Below, piece by piece: positions 1-5,332 of a DNA stretch of 5,332 nucleotides. The stretch's first letter is position 1. Each line of letters opens with the position of its first letter. The DNA lies in IMG/VR virus record IMGVR_UViG_2537561977_000027, positions 1-5,332 of that record; one strand, written 5' to 3'. Below the pieces are notes generated by a model. It was not told the origin of the DNA, searched no databases, and worked only from the letters and a program-made list of their open reading frames with translations. The position numbers were made by a program, and so were the translations under genes. Origin of the DNA: a virus (lineage: Duplodnaviria > Heunggongvirae > Uroviricota > Caudoviricetes).

Positions 1-1005
1 TTAATCCCCCGTGGACACTGCGTGGACACTCACGCCACCTTTCAGCGGATTAAGGGCCACCGCATCCTGCAGGTAATCCGGTGCAAAATGTGCATATGCC
101 ATTGTTTGCTGAATGGTTGCGTGGCCAAGAATCTTCTGAAGCGCAATAATGTTTCCTCCGTTCATCACAAAATGGCTGGCGAACGTATGCCGCAGCACAT
201 GTGCAGCCTGGCCTTTTGGTAAATCGGGCTTAACTCTTTTCAGCGCCAAGCAGAATTCCCGGTACTTCACCTCAAACAAGCCGCCTGTTTCTCTGGTTTT
301 GATCGCCTCACAAACTGCCTGCGAAATTGGCACTGTTCTCTTTCGGCCATTTTTGGTTTCAAGAAACGTTACACGGTTATGAACTATCTGTTCACCACGA
401 AGCTTACAAGCTTCACTCCAGCGCGCCCCTGTGCTTAAACACAAAAGCGCAACACGCCAGTAGTCGCCCTCCAGTGTATCGAGCAATAGCGCTACTTCCT
501 TCTGGGACAGAAAAGCCATTTCTCGTGGGGATACATAAAGAATAGAAATCCCCCTTACCGGATGCTCTGCATCCCAGAGGCCTATTTTCTTCAGTACGGT
601 AAACATTCCGGATAACCGATTCATGTATCTGTTAGCAGATGACGGTTTCAATCCATCAGCTATCTTTTGAGAACGCCACGCGATAATTTTCAGCTTATCA
701 AGATCCACAGCCTGCATATCAGCGCCAAGCTCATTGATTATGTTGCGCAGTTGTTTTCGGTCTTCTTCCGCCTTACGCCTGTGCTGGCCGTGATACATCC
801 ACCACAACTCAAGCAAATCATTTAGCGTTCGACGATCACGGTAGCCCTGTATATATTCCCGCTTTTCAGCGTTCGCCATGATGTAGCGTTCAGTGGCCAC
901 CGCTACCGATTTTTTGTCAAATACCTTACGCACGCGCTTTCCCTTGCGTCCGTTCGGCCTGATGTCCAGCAAATAACGACCATCTTCGAGCTTCTTAATT
1001 GACAT
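1..1005 (-). CDS. int: Tyrosine-type site-specific integrase, P2 Int-like (complete, 334 aa)
   Basis: Long minus-strand ORF. Tyrosine-recombinase catalytic residues are visible in order: R in TGARWSEA, H-x-x-R in HVLRHTFASH, and Y in QTMAYAHF. The N-terminus MSIKKLEDGRY and C-terminus SVHAVSTGD resemble P2 Int as I remember it. The ORF-track start at 1020 is a TTG; the in-frame ATG at 1005-1003 has GGAGGG about 7 nt upstream and is the more likely start. Stop TAA is the reverse complement of positions 1-3. Confidence 0.9.
   Translation of the reverse strand: MSIKKLEDGRYLLDIRPNGRKGKRVRKVFDKKSVAVATERYIMANAEKREYIQGYRDRRTLNDLLELWWMYHGQHRRKAEEDRKQLRNIINELGADMQAVDLDKLKIIAWRSQKIADGLKPSSANRYMNRLSGMFTVLKKIGLWDAEHPVRGISILYVSPREMAFLSQKEVALLLDTLEGDYWRVALLCLSTGARWSEACKLRGEQIVHNRVTFLETKNGRKRTVPISQAVCEAIKTRETGGLFEVKYREFCLALKRVKPDLPKGQAAHVLRHTFASHFVMNGGNIIALQKILGHATIQQTMAYAHFAPDYLQDAVALNPLKGGVSVHAVSTGD
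11..30. repeat. Direct repeat GTGGACACT x2 (11-19 and 22-30) inside the integrase 3' end; possible Int arm-type binding site
   Basis: Exact 9-bp direct repeat read from the sequence, 11 bp centre to centre, at the int 3' end where the phage attachment site is expected just beyond the window edge. It also encodes a peptide repeat (SVH/VST), so it could be purely coding. Confidence 0.3.
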
Positions 1006-1101
1006 TGCGAAGCCCTCCAATGAACCGCTCTACAATTTCTCCAGCCTCTTTCCAGCAATAATCAGACCAGACAAAGAGCAGGTCTAACCAGTTTTCTGGC
1101 C

Positions 1102-1422
1102 TTAGCGGGGTGATTTTTGGTTTGTTTCGGTTGAAACCTGATCGCCCTCCGAATCGAAGAAGCCATCAAGAGAGAGAGGCGGAGCAATCTGCCCCGTCGC
1201 AGCATTAGTTTGATTAAACATCACCCAATCCGAATACTTCCGAAAACGAGGATGATTCAAAATCAGGAGTAACGTTTCTCCAGGTATCATTCTTCCCAAT
1301 ATTTCATAATTTTTGAGATTGTTTTGAGATACCCCCGTCACCTCTTCCATCTCTCTACGTGACAATCCCTCTGCCTCTCGAATCAGGCGAAGTTTTTCTC
1401 CAAGGCTTGATTTATGGATCAT
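1102..1422 (-). CDS. C: Immunity (lysogeny) repressor, P2 C-type small HTH protein (106 aa)
   Basis: Minus-strand ORF between int and the divergent cox gene. N-terminal helix-turn-helix-like segment LSRREMEEVTGVSQNNLKNYE; the C-terminal part (RFRKYSDWVMFNQTNAATGQIAPPLS) resembles P2 C as I recall it. The ORF-track start at 1440 is GTG; the ATG at 1422-1420 is preferred. Stop is the reverse complement of 1102-1104. Confidence 0.75.
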   Translation of the reverse strand: MIHKSSLGEKLRLIREAEGLSRREMEEVTGVSQNNLKNYEILGRMIPGETLLLILNHPRFRKYSDWVMFNQTNAATGQIAPPLSLDGFFDSEGDQVSTETNQKSPR

Positions 1423-1537
1423 ATGTGATCTAAACTCCACACTATTGGGTTACATGTAATACAAAACATTCAAATAGCCAAAATAAGCCTATATAAGCCA
1501 TTTTGGGCCATTTGGCCGAATTAAGGAGATTACCACA
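1423..1537. promoter_or_regulatory. Divergent promoter/operator switch region (Pc leftward for C-int, Pe rightward for cox and early genes)
   Basis: 115-bp AT-rich spacer between divergent C and cox starts. AAGGAG RBS at 1523-1528 precedes the cox ATG. Possible -10 TATATA/TATAAG at 1491-1498. I could not place the -35/-10 hexamers for either promoter with confidence. Confidence 0.6.
1471..1520. repeat. Five-unit direct-repeat array with 10-bp periodicity (candidate Cox/C operator boxes)
   Basis: Reading in 10-mers from 1471: CAAATAGCCA, AAATAAGCCT, ATATAAGCCA, TTTTGGGCCA, TTTGGCCGAA. Each has an A/T-rich half followed by (A/G)GCC(A), in helical phase. P2 Cox is established to bind arrays of direct repeats in the Pe-Pc region; assigning these particular boxes is inference. 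Confidence 0.5.
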
Positions 1538-1825
1538 ATGAGCGAATCAGAGCTTGAGGGGTTCATTCAGGTAGCACCATATCCACTTGAAGCGGTGCCA
1601 TATCAACTATTTGCCAAGATGATTGGTCGCAAAGAATCAACCGTCAGAACCATGATTGACGCTGCAAAGTTACCAACGATTGACTTTGTGAAACCAGGTT
1701 CAGTGAAGACGCGAGCATCAGAAAACTGGGTATATCTGCCAGCATTTAACGCAGGTATGCGCAAAGCGTTTTTTGATCAGCCGAAAGAACGCCGCGATGC
1801 ATGGTTGTTGTGGCTGGGGCTTTAA
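1538..1825 (+). CDS. cox: Cox-like excisionase / early-promoter regulator (95 aa)
   Basis: First gene divergent from the repressor, with a strong RBS. The motifs PYQLFAKMIG, VRTMIDAAKLP, WVYLPAFNAG and a C-terminal WLLWLGL match my memory of P2 Cox. Confidence 0.8.
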   Translation: MSESELEGFIQVAPYPLEAVPYQLFAKMIGRKESTVRTMIDAAKLPTIDFVKPGSVKTRASENWVYLPAFNAGMRKAFFDQPKERRDAWLLWLGL

Positions 1826-1831
1826 TCATAA

Positions 1832-2038
1832 ATGACCAGCAATATCATCAGCGCCATTTTGAGCCTTGTGTACCTGGAAGTGGGAGTAATAGCGATTTAT
1901 CTGCTTAACAAGCTAACAGGGCAAAAAAAGCGCTTTATTGTTCTCAACGTTCATTACCTCGCCGCCTATACCAGAGGTCTTTTTCCGACCACTATTGGCG
2001 CGGTTCTCATAGCGTTTGTTATTTGGCTCATTGGGTAG
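1832..2038 (+). CDS. Small hydrophobic protein with two predicted transmembrane helices (68 aa), function unknown
   Basis: ATG at 1832, 6 nt after the cox stop. Two hydrophobic stretches (IISAILSLVYLEVGVIAIYLL and TIGAVLIAFVIWLIG) separated by a basic loop (GQKKRF). RBS is weak (GGGG about 12 nt upstream), so it may depend on coupling to cox. Confidence 0.55.
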   Translation: MTSNIISAILSLVYLEVGVIAIYLLNKLTGQKKRFIVLNVHYLAAYTRGLFPTTIGAVLIAFVIWLIG

Positions 2039-2142
2039 AGGCACAAAAAATGAATAAGCAACAGCAAAACAGCGAACCCCATCACATGAGGTTTCGCCGT
2101 AGATACTTCAAAAATGGACGTTATGTAGGATGCATCAATCGA

Positions 2143-2583
2143 TTAGCCAAACAAGTGTTTAAAAGCAAAGGAGATACCTGTGGTAAGCGCAGATGAGGCG
2201 GTGCTTTTTATTGCATCTATCGCCCCACTCTTGGTTGCATCGACAAGTTTATCTCCAAGCGATTGCTTAAGTGACTCTGGATCAAGTTTCAATAATTCAA
2301 GTCCTTTAGCCGTAAGTACCGCCTTATCGAAACTTTCAAAAGGAACAGCATCAGCAGATACATAACCAGCAGCAATAAGCCACTCAATGGAGTAATAACG
2401 AAGAACAAGAGCTTCATGTTTTTGCTTTCTGACCGCCGGGTCCTTCTCTTCAAACGTTGGAGCGGAAACACCGGTTAAAGCACAAACATCAATGGTTACT
2501 TTTCGGGGAAATGACTCATAAAGAAACGCAAAAGTTTTACCAACAGTTTCATTAAAAACATCAATATTTGAAGGTGTTGCCAT
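2143..2583 (-). CDS. Hypothetical protein (146 aa), antisense to the early operon; soluble N-terminal domain plus Gly/Ala/Ser-rich hydrophobic C-terminal tail
   Basis: Minus-strand ORF with ATG at 2583-2581 and GAGG 6 nt upstream. Protein-like composition, whereas plus-strand frames across the same interval are S/A/L-rich junk. Local GC is visibly lower than the flanks. C-terminal tail AIDAIKSTASSALTTGISFAFKHLFG. I do not recognise the family. The ORF-track 229-aa version (to 2832) has a junk-like N-terminal extension and a non-ATG start. Confidence 0.6.
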   Translation of the reverse strand: MATPSNIDVFNETVGKTFAFLYESFPRKVTIDVCALTGVSAPTFEEKDPAVRKQKHEALVLRYYSIEWLIAAGYVSADAVPFESFDKAVLTAKGLELLKLDPESLKQSLGDKLVDATKSGAIDAIKSTASSALTTGISFAFKHLFG

Positions 2584-2791
2584 GGATAACCTCACACAGA
2601 CAAAAGAAACAGCCATAAAAGAACTATATGACGATTTACGTTCCATCATTACACAACAAAAATCAGGTCGGCTAGACCCTACACGAGCAAAAGCCGCATG
2701 GGAAGTGGCACTGGCCAACCGGGATACTGGAGTAATTAGTGAAGTTATGGCCGAAGTAATTTTTAAACTTACAAGAAACATCAGACTGTAG
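2582..2791 (+). CDS. Hypothetical small helical protein (69 aa)
   Basis: ATG at 2582 with AGGTG 6 nt upstream. Charged, helix-like composition (KETAIKELYDDLRSIITQQK). The start codon overlaps the divergent start of the minus-strand gene within CCATGG. Stop TAG at 2789-2791. Confidence 0.55.
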   Translation: MDNLTQTKETAIKELYDDLRSIITQQKSGRLDPTRAKAAWEVALANRDTGVISEVMAEVIFKLTRNIRL

Positions 2792-2820
2792 ATCTTCAAC
2801 ACATTGAGGCAAGTCGGAAT

Positions 2821-3162
2821 ATGAAACAGCAACGTAATTCACGCTTTCGTAATGGTGCTGAACGCCACGCTAACCGTTTCGCTACCAGTGCATCACGCAG
2901 TAACATCCGCTACAGCCTGAGCGAAACACACGCAACACCGGATGGCCACGCTGTAAAACAAATCGGCGAGCATGCCTGGCTGATTGAGAAAGCTGGAATC
3001 GTGGTCCACAAATGCCCACGCAATCCGTTTACCGGAAACCGCATTTTTGCATTGAGCTGCGGCGACAATCACTTCGGGCAGGATTTCACATTATACGAAG
3101 CACTTCGCACGGTTGATCGTCTGCTTCGCGGGCAAAGTTTTATTAAACAGGCTGATTTATAA
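2821..3162 (+). CDS. Hypothetical early-region protein (113 aa), basic N-terminus
   Basis: ATG at 2821; GAGG about 11 nt upstream. Single long ORF with an Arg-rich N-terminal ~30 residues. No family recognised. Confidence 0.5.
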   Translation: MKQQRNSRFRNGAERHANRFATSASRSNIRYSLSETHATPDGHAVKQIGEHAWLIEKAGIVVHKCPRNPFTGNRIFALSCGDNHFGQDFTLYEALRTVDRLLRGQSFIKQADL

Positions 3163-3172
3163 CAGGTGCTTT

Positions 3173-3451
3173 ATGACCAAAGAGCATGCACAAGGTGTAT
3201 TTATCCGTTTTATTGATTTTCGCGGTGAACTGTTATTACGCGCATCAGCCATTGACGGAGTTGTTCCATCCGAAAAAAACGCAGCTACTTACGTTTATCT
3301 GAACGGTACGCGCCTGACTGTGGAGCTTCCGTACCAGACCGTACGAGAAATCATTAGCGAAGCTGAAAAGGCACGTCAGGTTAATGGCGATGAACCCTAT
3401 ATCGAAATTATTTGTATGGATTCAGAAGCTGAAATTCAGAAAGCAGATTAA
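3173..3451 (+). CDS. Hypothetical early-region protein (92 aa)
   Basis: The ORF-track start at 3113 is TTG and overlaps the previous gene. The ATG at 3173 with AGGTG 4 nt upstream is preferred. Stop TAA at 3449-3451. Confidence 0.55.
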   Translation: MTKEHAQGVFIRFIDFRGELLLRASAIDGVVPSEKNAATYVYLNGTRLTVELPYQTVREIISEAEKARQVNGDEPYIEIICMDSEAEIQKAD

Positions 3452-3462
3452 AGGGCGTTGCG

Positions 3463-3705
3463 ATGGGCAAAGAATATAAAACTCTCATTAATAAAGCACT
3501 TGAACGATTTTATTTTCGCTTAAGTGCATCAGGCGCTCATGCTGAACGTGCAGCCCGTGACTCATTGACCAGGGCAATCCGGAGTCTGTATGACGTGGCT
3601 TTTTACGCTGATGATCTGGATGCACTTAACGAACTTTCCGAGCTAATCTGTGCCGCAGAATGCGGGGAACATATTGAACCGTATAAGCTGGGGAATATCG
3701 CATGA
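3463..3705 (+). CDS. Hypothetical early-region protein (80 aa)
   Basis: ATG at 3463, with AAGGG 7 nt upstream. Stop TGA at 3703-3705 overlaps the next start (ATGA). Confidence 0.55.
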   Translation: MGKEYKTLINKALERFYFRLSASGAHAERAARDSLTRAIRSLYDVAFYADDLDALNELSELICAAECGEHIEPYKLGNIA

Positions 3706-3815
3706 GTATATTTATCTCATGGCTTGTTCTGATTATTTCTGTGGCCTGCGCCATTGGGATTATGCGAATTATTCATTCAGTAAAAAAGATTGAACGCTTT
3801 TTCACTGGCGAATAA
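3702..3815 (+). CDS. Candidate 37-aa single-pass membrane micro-protein (MSIFISWLVLIISVACAIGIMRIIHSVKKIERFFTGE)
   Basis: Not in the ORF track (below its length cut-off); hand-translated. ATG at 3702 overlaps the upstream TGA in ATGA, suggesting translational coupling. One hydrophobic helix followed by a basic tail. GGGGA lies 6 nt upstream. Confidence 0.4.
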   Translation: MSIFISWLVLIISVACAIGIMRIIHSVKKIERFFTGE

Positions 3816-3901
3816 CAGAGCAAATAAAACCACAGGTTAAATAAGAAAATGTAAAAACAATCCGCATTCGCGGAGGTATTCGCATACGCCAAGGAGGCGT
3901 A

Positions 3902-4105
3902 ATGGCAATTAAGCATTTTCCTGTCGTTCGTTTTACCTCCAGAGGACGTGAATACGAAGTCGACGAACGCCTGATTACCACAATCGACAAACACCGTTCA
4001 GAAAAGGATGCACATCACATCTATCTCACTGACGGCACTTACTTCTGCGCCACGAATGTGGTGCAGGTGAACCTTATCCGACAGGTACAGGAGTCACGCA
4101 GATGA
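3902..4105 (+). CDS. Hypothetical early-region protein (67 aa)
   Basis: ATG at 3902 with strong AAGGAGG at 3889-3895. Stop TGA overlaps the next start (ATGA at 4102-4105). Confidence 0.6.
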   Translation: MAIKHFPVVRFTSRGREYEVDERLITTIDKHRSEKDAHHIYLTDGTYFCATNVVQVNLIRQVQESRR

Positions 4106-4368
4106 CCATTCTGGACTACATCGCTACCCATCCGGGTTGTAGCGGCGGAGAAATCGCCGCAGCACTGAATACCCTAACCACAGCCATCAATGCTGAGTTA
4201 CGCCGACTCTGGCGCGGCGGCTTAGTCATCAGAACAAACCGCAGCACAGGTGGGCGCGCTCGCAAAGCAGGAGGCCAGGCTTCTTACCACGTAAACCCGA
4301 TGCCGTTCGGGTGTAGCAATCCACTTACTCACATGTTTAACCAGCTACTGAAGGAAACCAGAGCATGA
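4102..4368 (+). CDS. Putative winged-helix DNA-binding protein (88 aa)
   Basis: ATG at 4102 with CAGGAG 8 nt upstream. Pattern LDYIATHPGCSGGEIAAAL...LRRLWRGGLVIR followed by a Gly/Arg-rich wing-like segment (TNRSTGGRARKAGG), typical of wHTH regulators. Fold assignment is inference. Confidence 0.5.
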   Translation: MTILDYIATHPGCSGGEIAAALNTLTTAINAELRRLWRGGLVIRTNRSTGGRARKAGGQASYHVNPMPFGCSNPLTHMFNQLLKETRA

Positions 4369-4664
4369 GCACCATCAATCACCAGAAGCTACGCGAACTG
4401 GCATTTGCCCTGCAACGAATGGCAACGCCTCAAAAATTACTGGCATTTCGCGCAATGCTCTCGCCGTCTGCTGTGCTGGCACTGCTGGATGAGCTGGAGC
4501 ACGCCAGAACCACGGCTCCTGCCATTCGCCTGACACTCCATCATGAAATCGCTGATTTCTGTGCGACGTTGGAGGCGCCAGGCGAACCGGAAACGCCGGA
4601 AGCAATACAGCAAGAGCTGCTGCAACGCATTGACAAGGTTTTTGATTTTTTTCTGAACCAGTAA
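4365..4664 (+). CDS. Hypothetical early-region protein (99 aa), acidic helical
   Basis: ATG at 4365 overlaps the upstream stop (ATGA); AAGGA about 9 nt upstream. Last gene before the structured non-coding region. Confidence 0.55.
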   Translation: MSTINHQKLRELAFALQRMATPQKLLAFRAMLSPSAVLALLDELEHARTTAPAIRLTLHHEIADFCATLEAPGEPETPEAIQQELLQRIDKVFDFFLNQ

Positions 4665-4780
4665 GAAACCAGAACATGTACACACAAAAAACCGCTTGCC
4701 ATGCCGCAATCAGTCAGGTTACATTTCCGTTGCATCTCATAAAACGGGGGCCGGGTTTCGCAGCCTGCTGATCAACAAAG

Positions 4781-4810
4781 CGCACAACCGCGCCAGCGGT
4801 TTTTTGTGCG
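4781..4810 (+). terminator. Intrinsic-terminator-like hairpin followed by a T-run
   Basis: Inner stem AACCGC (4786-4791) / GCGGTT (4796-4801) with loop GCCA, then TTTT (4802-4805). Outer arms CGCACA (4781-4786) / TGTGCG (4805-4810) can extend the helix across a T bulge. A second T-run of six follows at 4828-4833. Confidence 0.45.
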
Positions 4811-4861
4811 TACCGCATTGCCGCACATTTTTTCGCATCAGAATTATGGTGGGGCGTACGG

Positions 4862-4891
4862 GGCCGACTTCGGTCGGGCCGGGTTTTCTTT
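4862..4891 (+). terminator. GC-rich hairpin with TTCG tetraloop followed by a U-rich tract
   Basis: GGCCGAC (4862-4868), loop TTCG, GTCGGGCC (4873-4880) with one bulge, then GGGTTTTCTTTG. The interrupted U-tract makes terminator function uncertain; it could instead be a stable RNA structural element. Confidence 0.35.
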
Positions 4892-4987
4892 GTTGACCGG
4901 TACTGCGAACCTCGTACGTCTCGCCACCCACAGTTTCGCAGCTCTGGATGGTGAGTATTCAAAACTTACCAACAAAGAGGCCATACC

Positions 4988-5218
4988 ATGGCAAACCGCA
5001 AACAGCACCGCGCTATCGCGGAGCGTCGTCACATCCAGACTGAAATCAACCGCAGACTTTCCCGCGCATCACGCGTCGCGCAAATCATGCACATCAATAT
5101 GCTGCATGAGCGCAGCCACGCACTATCAAACATTTATTCCGCCTCTGTTTTCAGCTATCTGGCGGATGATCTGCACGAGCTTCAACAGCTCATCCAGCAG
5201 CAAAACAAACTCCATTAA
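4988..5218 (+). CDS. Hypothetical small basic/helical protein (76 aa)
   Basis: ATG at 4988 with AAGAGG at 4974-4979. Arg-rich N-terminus (MANRKQHRAIAERRHIQTEINRRLSRASR), no cysteines. First gene after the structured region. No family recognised. Confidence 0.5.
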   Translation: MANRKQHRAIAERRHIQTEINRRLSRASRVAQIMHINMLHERSHALSNIYSASVFSYLADDLHELQQLIQQQNKLH

Positions 5219-5290
5219 TTCCTGTTCCGGGCCTTTCCTGCACCTTGCGGCGGGAGGCCTTCGCACATCTGTAACAAGAGGATTGCCGCA

Positions 5291-5332
5291 ATGATTCTCG
5301 CCAACGACTTTCTTGAATACCTGCTCAACACA
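5291..5332 (+). CDS. 5' end of a downstream gene, truncated by the window (MILANDFLEYLLNT...)
   Basis: ATG at 5291 with AAGAGG about 11 nt upstream; open to the window end. Only 14 codons are visible, so identity cannot be judged (a replication gene would be expected hereabouts in a P2-like layout, but I cannot confirm it). Confidence 0.3.
   Translation, partial: MILANDFLEYLLNT

Follow-up and report, generated by a model that had tools for sequence, protein, structure and literature searches.

The interval 4665-4987 and its two RNA elements

The window analysed here, a DNA stretch of 5,332 nt from a virus of the Caudoviricetes (IMG/VR record IMGVR_UViG_2537561977_000027, positions 1 to 5,332), forms the left end of a P88-type prophage of the P2 family (genus Xuanwuvirus). 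Between the early genes and the replication gene A lies an interval of 323 bp (4665-4987), followed on the plus strand by a 76-aa gene (4988-5218) for a homologue of the P4 anti-repressor epsilon (E). Within this interval we found an IsrK-like RNA and a C4-type antisense RNA in tandem, and the 76-aa gene is the presumed regulated target. A previous reading of the letters without database searches (the sequence-only reading) had described the interval as GC-rich, structured and devoid of a convincing open reading frame (ORF). The absence of a credible ORF was confirmed; the ORFs listed there, of 31, 66 and 162 aa on the plus strand and 82, 64 and 62 aa on the minus strand, are split by 1- and 2-nt indels between close relatives. 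The GC content of the interval (52.9%) does exceed that of the window (47.1%), but the neighbouring genes at 4100-4600 reach 52-58.5%, so that GC-richness is not distinctive and was dropped as a signal. The sole high part of the interval is the C4 core, with 61%.

An Rfam scan of the whole window matched two families above their curated gathering thresholds, both on the plus strand. The isrK model (RF01394) matches at 4732-4806 with 56.9 bits (cutoff 50, E = 1.3e-10), and the C4 model (RF01695) at 4842-4931 with 77.8 bits (cutoff 45, E = 1.4e-14) over its full length, 1-87 of 87. Together with strong covariation, these matches bear out the idea of a structured small RNA (sRNA) or cis-regulatory RNA, one of several roles that had been considered for the interval.

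The IsrK-like RNA (4732-4806), the equivalent of the P4 seqA leader, consists of a 5' hairpin, a second hairpin with box a1 (TTCGCAG, 4757-4763) in its loop, a single-stranded stretch with box b1 (TCAACAAAG, 4772-4780, also written (T)CAACAAAG), and an intrinsic terminator with its stem at 4786-4801 and a T-run to 4806. A promoter scan placed a sigma-70-like site (TTGCCA, 18 nt, TACATT) at 4696-4725 on the plus strand, and the predicted transcription start, about 4732, is the first base of the isrK match. A -35/-10 pair stands at the same distance 5' of isrK in P88, Citrobacter phage Shae_phiSM, Stx2 phage F004, mEp460, ST64B, N15 and P4, where the equivalent position is that of PLE; among six P88-like sequences the promoter stretch is invariant, though the DNA 5' of it differs. 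The assignment to RF01394 combines a gathering score, a promoter-like start, an intrinsic terminator and a C4 element directly 3', with transcription predicted only.

Two terminator-like hairpins had been noted in the interval, and both were recovered by the terminator scan (4786-4801 with its T-run, and 4869-4883 with TTTTCTTTGT); only the first is a real terminator candidate. The T-run of the second is the loop of C4 hairpin 2, which holds box b' and reads TTCTTGTG or TTCTGTAG in relatives. An intrinsic terminator at about 4869-4890, whose U-run gives way to UUCUUGUG or UUCUGUAG in relatives, was rejected on this ground, and the second 3' end expected near 4890 falls with it.

The C4 RNA (4842-4931) is built from a 17-bp closing stem (4847-4863 with 4910-4926), hairpin 1 (4864-4868 with 4873-4877) and hairpin 2 (4878-4882 with 4897-4901), all on the plus strand. 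The loop of hairpin 2 carries box b' (CUUUGUUG, 4888-4895; with the next base CUUUGUUGA, 4888-4896), and box a' (CUGCGAA, 4903-4909) lies in a single-stranded linker. The minimum free energy (MFE) of the C4 RNA is -44.6 kcal/mol (z = -3.5, with 0 of 200 shuffles as good), against -29.8 kcal/mol for the minus strand, and the MFE structure is that of the Rfam model. A 10-bp pairing of 4853-4862 with 4911-4920, proposed from the sequence, holds with 8 Watson-Crick and 2 G-U pairs and forms the centre of the closing stem. The palindrome CGTACG is present twice in the interval as had been stated, at 4855 and 4913 (a third copy in the window is at 3340); the two copies are the two strands of this one RNA stem, with compensating variants CGTATG/CGTACG and CGCATG/CATACG in relatives. 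The whole 259-nt transcript also folds better than expected (z = -3.7), and in its MFE structure a1/b1 pair with a'/b' in cis.

Pairing boxes and their covariation

Boxes a' and b' of C4 are each perfectly complementary to two sites, one within IsrK and one just 3' of C4. The downstream box a2 (TTCGCAG, 4935-4941) is the exact complement of a', and b2 (CAACAAAGA, 4970-4978) is the exact 9-nt complement of C4 4887-4895. Box b2 overlaps the Shine-Dalgarno sequence AAGAGG (4975-4980) of the 76-aa gene, whose ATG is at 4988. Boxes a1 and a2 are identical, as are b1 and b2, both in the window and in each of the ten loci compared. The sequence-only reading had taken CTGCGAA (4903-4909) and TTCGCAG (4935-4941) for a local stem; the complementarity is exact, but since a' and b' each match both IsrK and the downstream site, it is one of four antisense-target contacts rather than a stem, and the further TTCGCAG copy at 4757-4763 (box a1) had been missed. 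A C4 7-mer complementary to both flanks arose in only 4 of 20,000 flank shuffles. Between a2 and b2 a small hairpin (UGGUGAGU / ACUUACCA, 4949-4971) appears in the fold of 4932-4990 (z = -2.2); it is 91.7% paired over 19 sequences, with changes that are mostly one-sided.

The boxes change between relatives in a concerted manner. Among six P88-like sequences there are four specificities, and a1/a'/a2 and b1/b'/b2 change in step. A further 83 loci fetched with the 76-aa protein gave 37 unique P88-like upstream regions, in which 5 a-types and 11 b-types reassort into 14 (a', b') combinations. In each of the 14, a1 and a2 match their partner box over 7-8 nt and b1 and b2 over 8-11 nt (G-U allowed), and all three copies of each box co-vary in every P88-like case (at least 14 combinations). 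A scan with the hairpin-1 core raised the number of combinations to roughly 22; in 76 of 92 further unique contexts, a set limited by the exact search for this core, all four sites are perfectly Watson-Crick paired (at least 7 nt for a and at least 8 nt for b). In a check for cross-talk with satellites, none of the 92 unique C4 contexts found by that exact search provided an (a', b') pair shared between epsilon-linked modules and modules in which a 'MAT...' ORF comes next.

The folding and covariance analysis of homologous regions supported the helices by compensatory changes. In an alignment of 19 sequences, the structure with a1:a' and b1:b' has 97.4% of its cells paired, and in 29 pairs both partners have changed; none of 500 shuffles reached this level, while controls with a slid register gave 40-46%. 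The contacts a1:a' and b1:b' are 99% paired, with changes on both sides in 5 of 7 and 8 of 9 pairs, respectively. The closing stem of C4 is 99.7% paired with 8 compensatory pairs, and both hairpins are 100% paired, hairpin 1 with 2 compensatory pairs. For a':a2 and b':b2 the value is 92.3%, the shortfall coming from alignment shifts in distant phages. This co-variation across types and in the alignment argues strongly, on comparative grounds, for pairing of C4 with both flanking sites. In terms of RF01695, the element shows a score over the full model, a long stem and two hairpins with compensation, and two unpaired boxes whose target lies at the ribosome-binding site (RBS) of the downstream gene.

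Two further complementarities were seen. The 3' strand of the C4 closing stem (e.g. CUCACCACC) has its complement in a conserved GGUGGUGAG-like segment located 16-27 nt 3' of C4, between a2 and b2, in P88, Shae_phiSM, Stx2 F004, mEp460, ST64B, N15 and P4; in the window the equivalent is TGGTGAG (4949-4955), whose match to the stem strand needs one G-U. An alternative pairing of this strand with the a2-b2 segment in the unprocessed transcript is therefore possible on sequence grounds. In addition, the a' box of P88 (GUGGAAA) is the reverse complement of that of mEp460 and ST64B (UUUCCAC), so the C4 RNAs of P88 and of mEp460/ST64B could in principle pair together, although the complementarity is possibly a coincidence.

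The 76-aa gene and the repressor

The 76-aa protein belongs to the Pfam family PF25738 'Derepression' (32.7 bits, cutoff 27), and 'derepression protein' is the name given by NCBI to its relatives. BLASTP aligned it to P4 epsilon with 29% identity over 66 aa (E = 4e-9). Over 34 alleles, the variable sites fall 25, 24 and 44 times on codon positions 1, 2 and 3 of the 76-aa frame, and this excess at third positions indicates that it is the coding frame. Neither NCBIfam nor PHROGs assigned the 76-aa protein or the next ORF to an Icd or Ant family. This next ORF, of 121 aa, starts at 5291, 3' of the 76-aa gene, and showed no homology to P4 ORF151 (E = 0.16).

P4 E is an anti-repressor that binds the repressor C of P2, and the mutation T67I (sos) in P2 C abolishes this binding. 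A repressor gene of the window itself (1102-1440, minus strand) encodes a homologue of P2 C (35% identity, E = 6e-20). Since P4 E binds P2 C and the window repressor is a homologue of P2 C, the simplest target of the epsilon-like protein would be the phage's own repressor; this is the least certain step of the interpretation, because the window repressor has a Phe at the position of P2 C Thr67.

Prophage context

In the window, an integrase gene (1-1020, minus strand) is followed by the repressor gene and by cox (1538-1825), and a string of small early genes fills the space between cox and the interval. In the full prophage, the next gene after the 121-aa ORF is that for the gene A replication endonuclease, so the module stands between the early genes and the replication gene. 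The segment 4600-5332 is 99.7% identical to a prophage adjoining pdxB in E. coli FDAARGOS_943, while the window shows 92-96% identity to phages P88, P884B11 and vB_EcoM-569R5. The interval region was matched in 1279 of 5426 complete E. coli genomes. A contig search with the 76-aa protein returned 3 loci only, so that the breadth across species is sparsely sampled. One locus (L093, NZ_JBQPOM010000071.1), a 226-kb contig labelled 'Vagococcus sp. WN89Y' and thus as a Firmicute, carries a P88-like enterobacterial module with a 76-aa protein of 89% identity; it probably reflects assembly contamination or mislabelling.

Several other features of the window were recorded. A 146-aa gene at 2143-2583 (minus strand; 3544-3984 in locus L002), labelled hypothetical in RefSeq, lies on the opposite strand within the otherwise co-directional early operon and resembles a cargo ('moron') gene acquired by insertion. 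After the 76-aa gene, the spacer of 72 nt that leads to the following ORF (5219-5290) is almost invariant in six phages, even where the 76-aa gene diverges, and could form a 14-bp imperfect hairpin at 5229-5260 without a U-run; the fold of the intergenic hairpin region 5216-5293 was not better than that of shuffles (z = -0.8). The same was found for the spacer 4807-4841. No tRNA or tmRNA was found in the scan for these genes.

Comparison with known systems

The isrK-then-C4 tandem was recovered by Rfam in P88, P884B11, 569R5, Shae_phiSM, Stx2 phage F004, mEp460, ST64B, N15 and P4, i.e. the order isrK to C4 is the same in nine other loci. In all ten loci, from the window to P4, the dual target boxes occupy the same positions and differ in sequence. 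In Stx2 phage F004 both RNAs had been annotated by the depositors. In contrast, the int-to-tin stretch of P2, which contains the early operon, matched neither isrK nor C4 in the Rfam scan.

One close parallel is satellite phage P4. Both Rfam models match P4 in the order and orientation of the window (isrK at 8615-8692, C4 at 8420-8507); the isrK match lies on the seqA leader and the C4 match on the locus of the CI RNA, once annotated as 'cI gene product'. The promoter PLE is at an equal distance, each of the two boxes of the RNA has one complementary copy on its upstream and one on its downstream side, and the genes that come next include one of the epsilon family and then one for replication. 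As in P4, the target sequence flanks the RNA on both sides (seqA upstream, seqC downstream). The differences are that P4 is a satellite whereas the window element is a full P2-family phage, that the IsrK-C4 spacer is 35 nt in the window and 107 nt in P4, and that the box sequences differ. Moreover, the P4 left operon continues after the CI locus with epsilon, ORF151, ORF106 and alpha, and in P4 and the lambdoid phages a 'MAT...' ORF follows C4 directly, P4 epsilon being further downstream, whereas in the window the epsilon-like gene takes that place. By analogy, the order C4, epsilon, 121-aa ORF, gene A would be compatible with P4-type premature termination that silences the replication genes.

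In P1, the c4 RNA represses Ant synthesis. In the immI regions of P1 and P7, as attributed to Citron and Schuster (1990/1992) and Biere et al. (1992), a processed c4 is said to be co-transcribed with its target and to block the RBS of the first downstream ORF, which leaves the anti-repressor silent, and the pairing boxes reportedly differ between the heteroimmune variants. The window lacks homologues of icd and ant1/ant2, and its regulated gene is of the epsilon family, so that by analogy the module works like immI yet is a different operon; P1 was compared by description only.

Resemblance to Salmonella Gifsy-1 (isrK, STnc1160/orf45, anrP) concerns the own promoter and leaky terminator of IsrK and a C4-like stable RNA processed from the read-through transcript with an anti-repressor downstream. 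According to Hershko-Shalev 2016, IsrK governs the translation of a downstream ORF and of the anti-repressor, and the processed RNA STnc1160 lies 3' of IsrK; the paper treats IsrK as a structural homologue of P4 seqA and notes the seqA/CI homology. Unlike Gifsy-1, the window has no equivalent of orf45 (the ORF within C4 has 16 aa, and its length shifts with indels in relatives), its anti-repressor is of another family, and antQ is not involved. In the anti-immunity system described for the phage-plasmid N15, a small processed CA RNA controls the anti-repressor operon. There the isrK-C4 tandem, with the same dual boxes, stands upstream of an Ant-containing operon, and the downstream genes differ (gp32, gp31, Ant); the N15 a' box GTTGAGAA is common to some P88-like types, while its b' box is not. 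The literature already regards IsrK-C4 as one system, and for helper-type prophages it has been proposed to protect against satellites (Barquist et al.).

Proposed mechanism and points against it

The interval very probably represents an antisense-RNA immunity module of the P4/P1/N15 type in the early operon of a P88-like (Xuanwuvirus) prophage. In P1 and P4, the 5' end of the C4-type RNA is made by RNase P. By analogy with P1 c4, P4 CI, N15 CA and Gifsy-1 IsrK, the module promoter would make IsrK, with most transcripts stopping at the terminator (4806), and the read-through RNA would be processed to free C4. C4 may then pair with a2/b2, occlude the RBS and block translation of the epsilon-like gene, and lost translation would lead to polarity or premature termination and less transcription downstream. 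The anti-repressor would thereby be kept off in the lysogen and in a superinfecting phage of the same box type, and the 121-aa ORF and gene A would probably be silenced as well when transcribed from the module promoter. In the unprocessed transcript, a1/b1 are predicted by the MFE fold to pair with a'/b' in cis. Because free IsrK carries the same boxes as a2/b2, it could act as a decoy that titrates C4 and relieves repression, and such a role would match the activating effect of IsrK in Gifsy-1. The epsilon-like protein might then inactivate a P2 C-type repressor, most simply that of the phage itself.

Several observations weigh against this interpretation. Transcription, processing, Hfq binding and repression at the module are all inferred. 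The 29% identity to P4 epsilon is modest, and the partner of the anti-repressor is presumed only; in the alignment of the window repressor to P2 C, Trp64 is conserved but Thr67 is replaced by Phe (F75). The isrK score of the window is the lowest of the set (56.9 bits against 61-67 bits in relatives), the IsrK 5' hairpin has two non-canonical pairs, and a 2-nt insertion (4885-4886) relative to the closest relatives lies in the loop of C4 hairpin 2; on these three grounds, the window copy could be slightly decayed. In Gifsy-1, IsrK has been published as an activator, and its effect was not blocked by constitutive STnc1160, the counterpart of C4, so even in the model system the balance between IsrK and C4 may go either way.

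Compared with its closest relatives, the window also has two substitutions (4735 and 4749) that weaken the IsrK 5' hairpin, and a terminator U-run (4801-4806) that is one nt shorter. All four pairing boxes are intact despite these changes and the insertion at 4885-4886.

Alternative explanations

An unlikely alternative, modelled on Gifsy-1, is that IsrK is the main positive regulator, which in its short form binds the read-through RNA, opens the RBS and switches the anti-repressor on, with C4 mainly a structural part of the inactive leader rather than a free repressor. Hershko-Shalev 2016 reports that IsrK in trans activates anrP translation 114- to 171-fold and describes a 'structure A', inactive, with the central part of IsrK paired to about 30 nt downstream, and the MFE fold of the long window transcript contains the equivalent cis pairing of a1/b1 with a'/b'. 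However, a1/b1 of IsrK have the same sequence as a2/b2, and IsrK can therefore pair only with a'/b' of C4 and never with the RBS. Moreover, co-variation with C4 is as tight for a2/b2 as for a1/b1, which is expected only if C4 contacts the RBS region. The decoy model for IsrK and the repressor model for C4 are mutually compatible.

It is very improbable that the interval serves transcriptional punctuation only, i.e. that a terminator and an internal promoter split the early operon and no RNA acts in trans. The terminator-promoter module envisaged in the sequence-only reading stands in part: there are a promoter-like site at 4696-4725 and the IsrK terminator at 4786-4806 in the middle of the early operon, between the early genes and the replication gene, whereas the 3' end near 4890 is the C4 loop. 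Punctuation alone leaves unexplained both the covarying 17-bp stem 3' of the terminator and the concerted changes of the boxes at three sites in at least 14 types; it is also at odds with the homology to RNAs of P4, P1 and N15 whose action in trans is proven.

A still poorer candidate is a missed or frameshifted gene, namely a 205-aa 'transcriptional regulator' that would be split in the window into ORFs 4696-4896 and 4806-5294. A conserved coding frame across homologous phages seems at first sight to exist, since the coding sequence (CDS) annotated in P884B11 and 569R5 (1451-2068 in loci L004 and L005) spans the 76-aa gene as well as the RNAs; where it crosses the 76-aa gene, this alternative frame has no stop in 73 of 73 loci, and its end overlaps the following gene by ATGA. 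Yet the frame is broken in the window, where the 76-aa frame is the coding one. The 205-aa translation is of low complexity, rich in Ser, Thr and Cys and without a family (no protein family was scanned for it), and the Pfam match belongs to the 76-aa frame, which the 205-aa ORF reads out of frame. In addition, 1- and 2-nt indels between relatives of 89-95% identity interrupt the alternative frame, its position 2 has the largest share of the variable sites, and the variable blocks change as three-way complementary boxes rather than as codons. The coding reading is thus largely refuted, being ruled out by the ORF check, the indels and the codon-position pattern.

Finally, a DNA-level element, either a protein-binding site or a replication origin, was suggested by the palindrome CGTACG, twice present in the interval, but this idea is without support and can practically be dismissed, as the two copies are opposite strands of one RNA stem with compensatory variation, the plus strand folds far better than the minus strand, and in P2 the annotated origin, a nick site, lies within gene A.

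Annotation of the RNA loci in related phages

Existing records treat the two RNAs in different ways. Of the five P88-like records inspected (P88, FDAARGOS_943, P884B11, 569R5 and Shae_phiSM), none carries an RNA annotation, and several place spurious CDSs over the RNAs. The alternative-frame ORF 4806-5294 of the window (plus strand, 162 aa) runs over C4 and corresponds to the 205-aa regulator or to a hypothetical protein in P884B11 and 569R5. In the RefSeq record of P88, SF19_gp13 (5033-5221 of locus L001, minus strand) is a 'hypothetical protein' exactly over isrK and C4, with window equivalents in the minus-strand ORFs 4714-4962 and 4737-4931, and is almost certainly spurious. In mEp460 (gp41; 1141-2292 of locus L007) and ST64B (sb41; 1147-2304 of locus L008), the start of the anti-repressor CDS is annotated 5' of isrK, so that the CDS engulfs both RNAs; the true start is probably the ATG just past the b2/Shine-Dalgarno site ('MATIP...').

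Significance for P88-like phages

The RNA families, their tandem arrangement, the logic and the mechanism are already known. No description of an sRNA in P88-like phages was found in the searchable literature, and the presence of the module in P88-like phages of the P2 family, coupled directly to an epsilon homologue, appears to be undescribed, as does, as far as found, the breadth of its modular box types. The at least 14 natural box types with three-way compensation are a ready specificity dataset for antisense RNA targeting, and the annotation of a very common E. coli prophage family is corrected. The module probably gives a P2-type phage a second, RNA-based layer of immunity that guards an epsilon-type anti-repressor, which bears on the induction of P88-like prophages and on their dealings with P4-like satellites.

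A speculative reading, which we consider doubtful, is that the boxes, diversified in a modular way into at least 5-6 a-types and 11-13 b-types with reassortment between them, serve as a two-part 'bar-code' for recognition of self and non-self among co-resident P2-like prophages and P4-like satellites. If true, any incoming element whose boxes match those of the resident C4 would have its anti-repressor silenced, which would extend the satellite-protection idea of Barquist et al. The sharing of the cassette between P88-like phages and satellite P4 would then point to gene exchange between helper and satellite.

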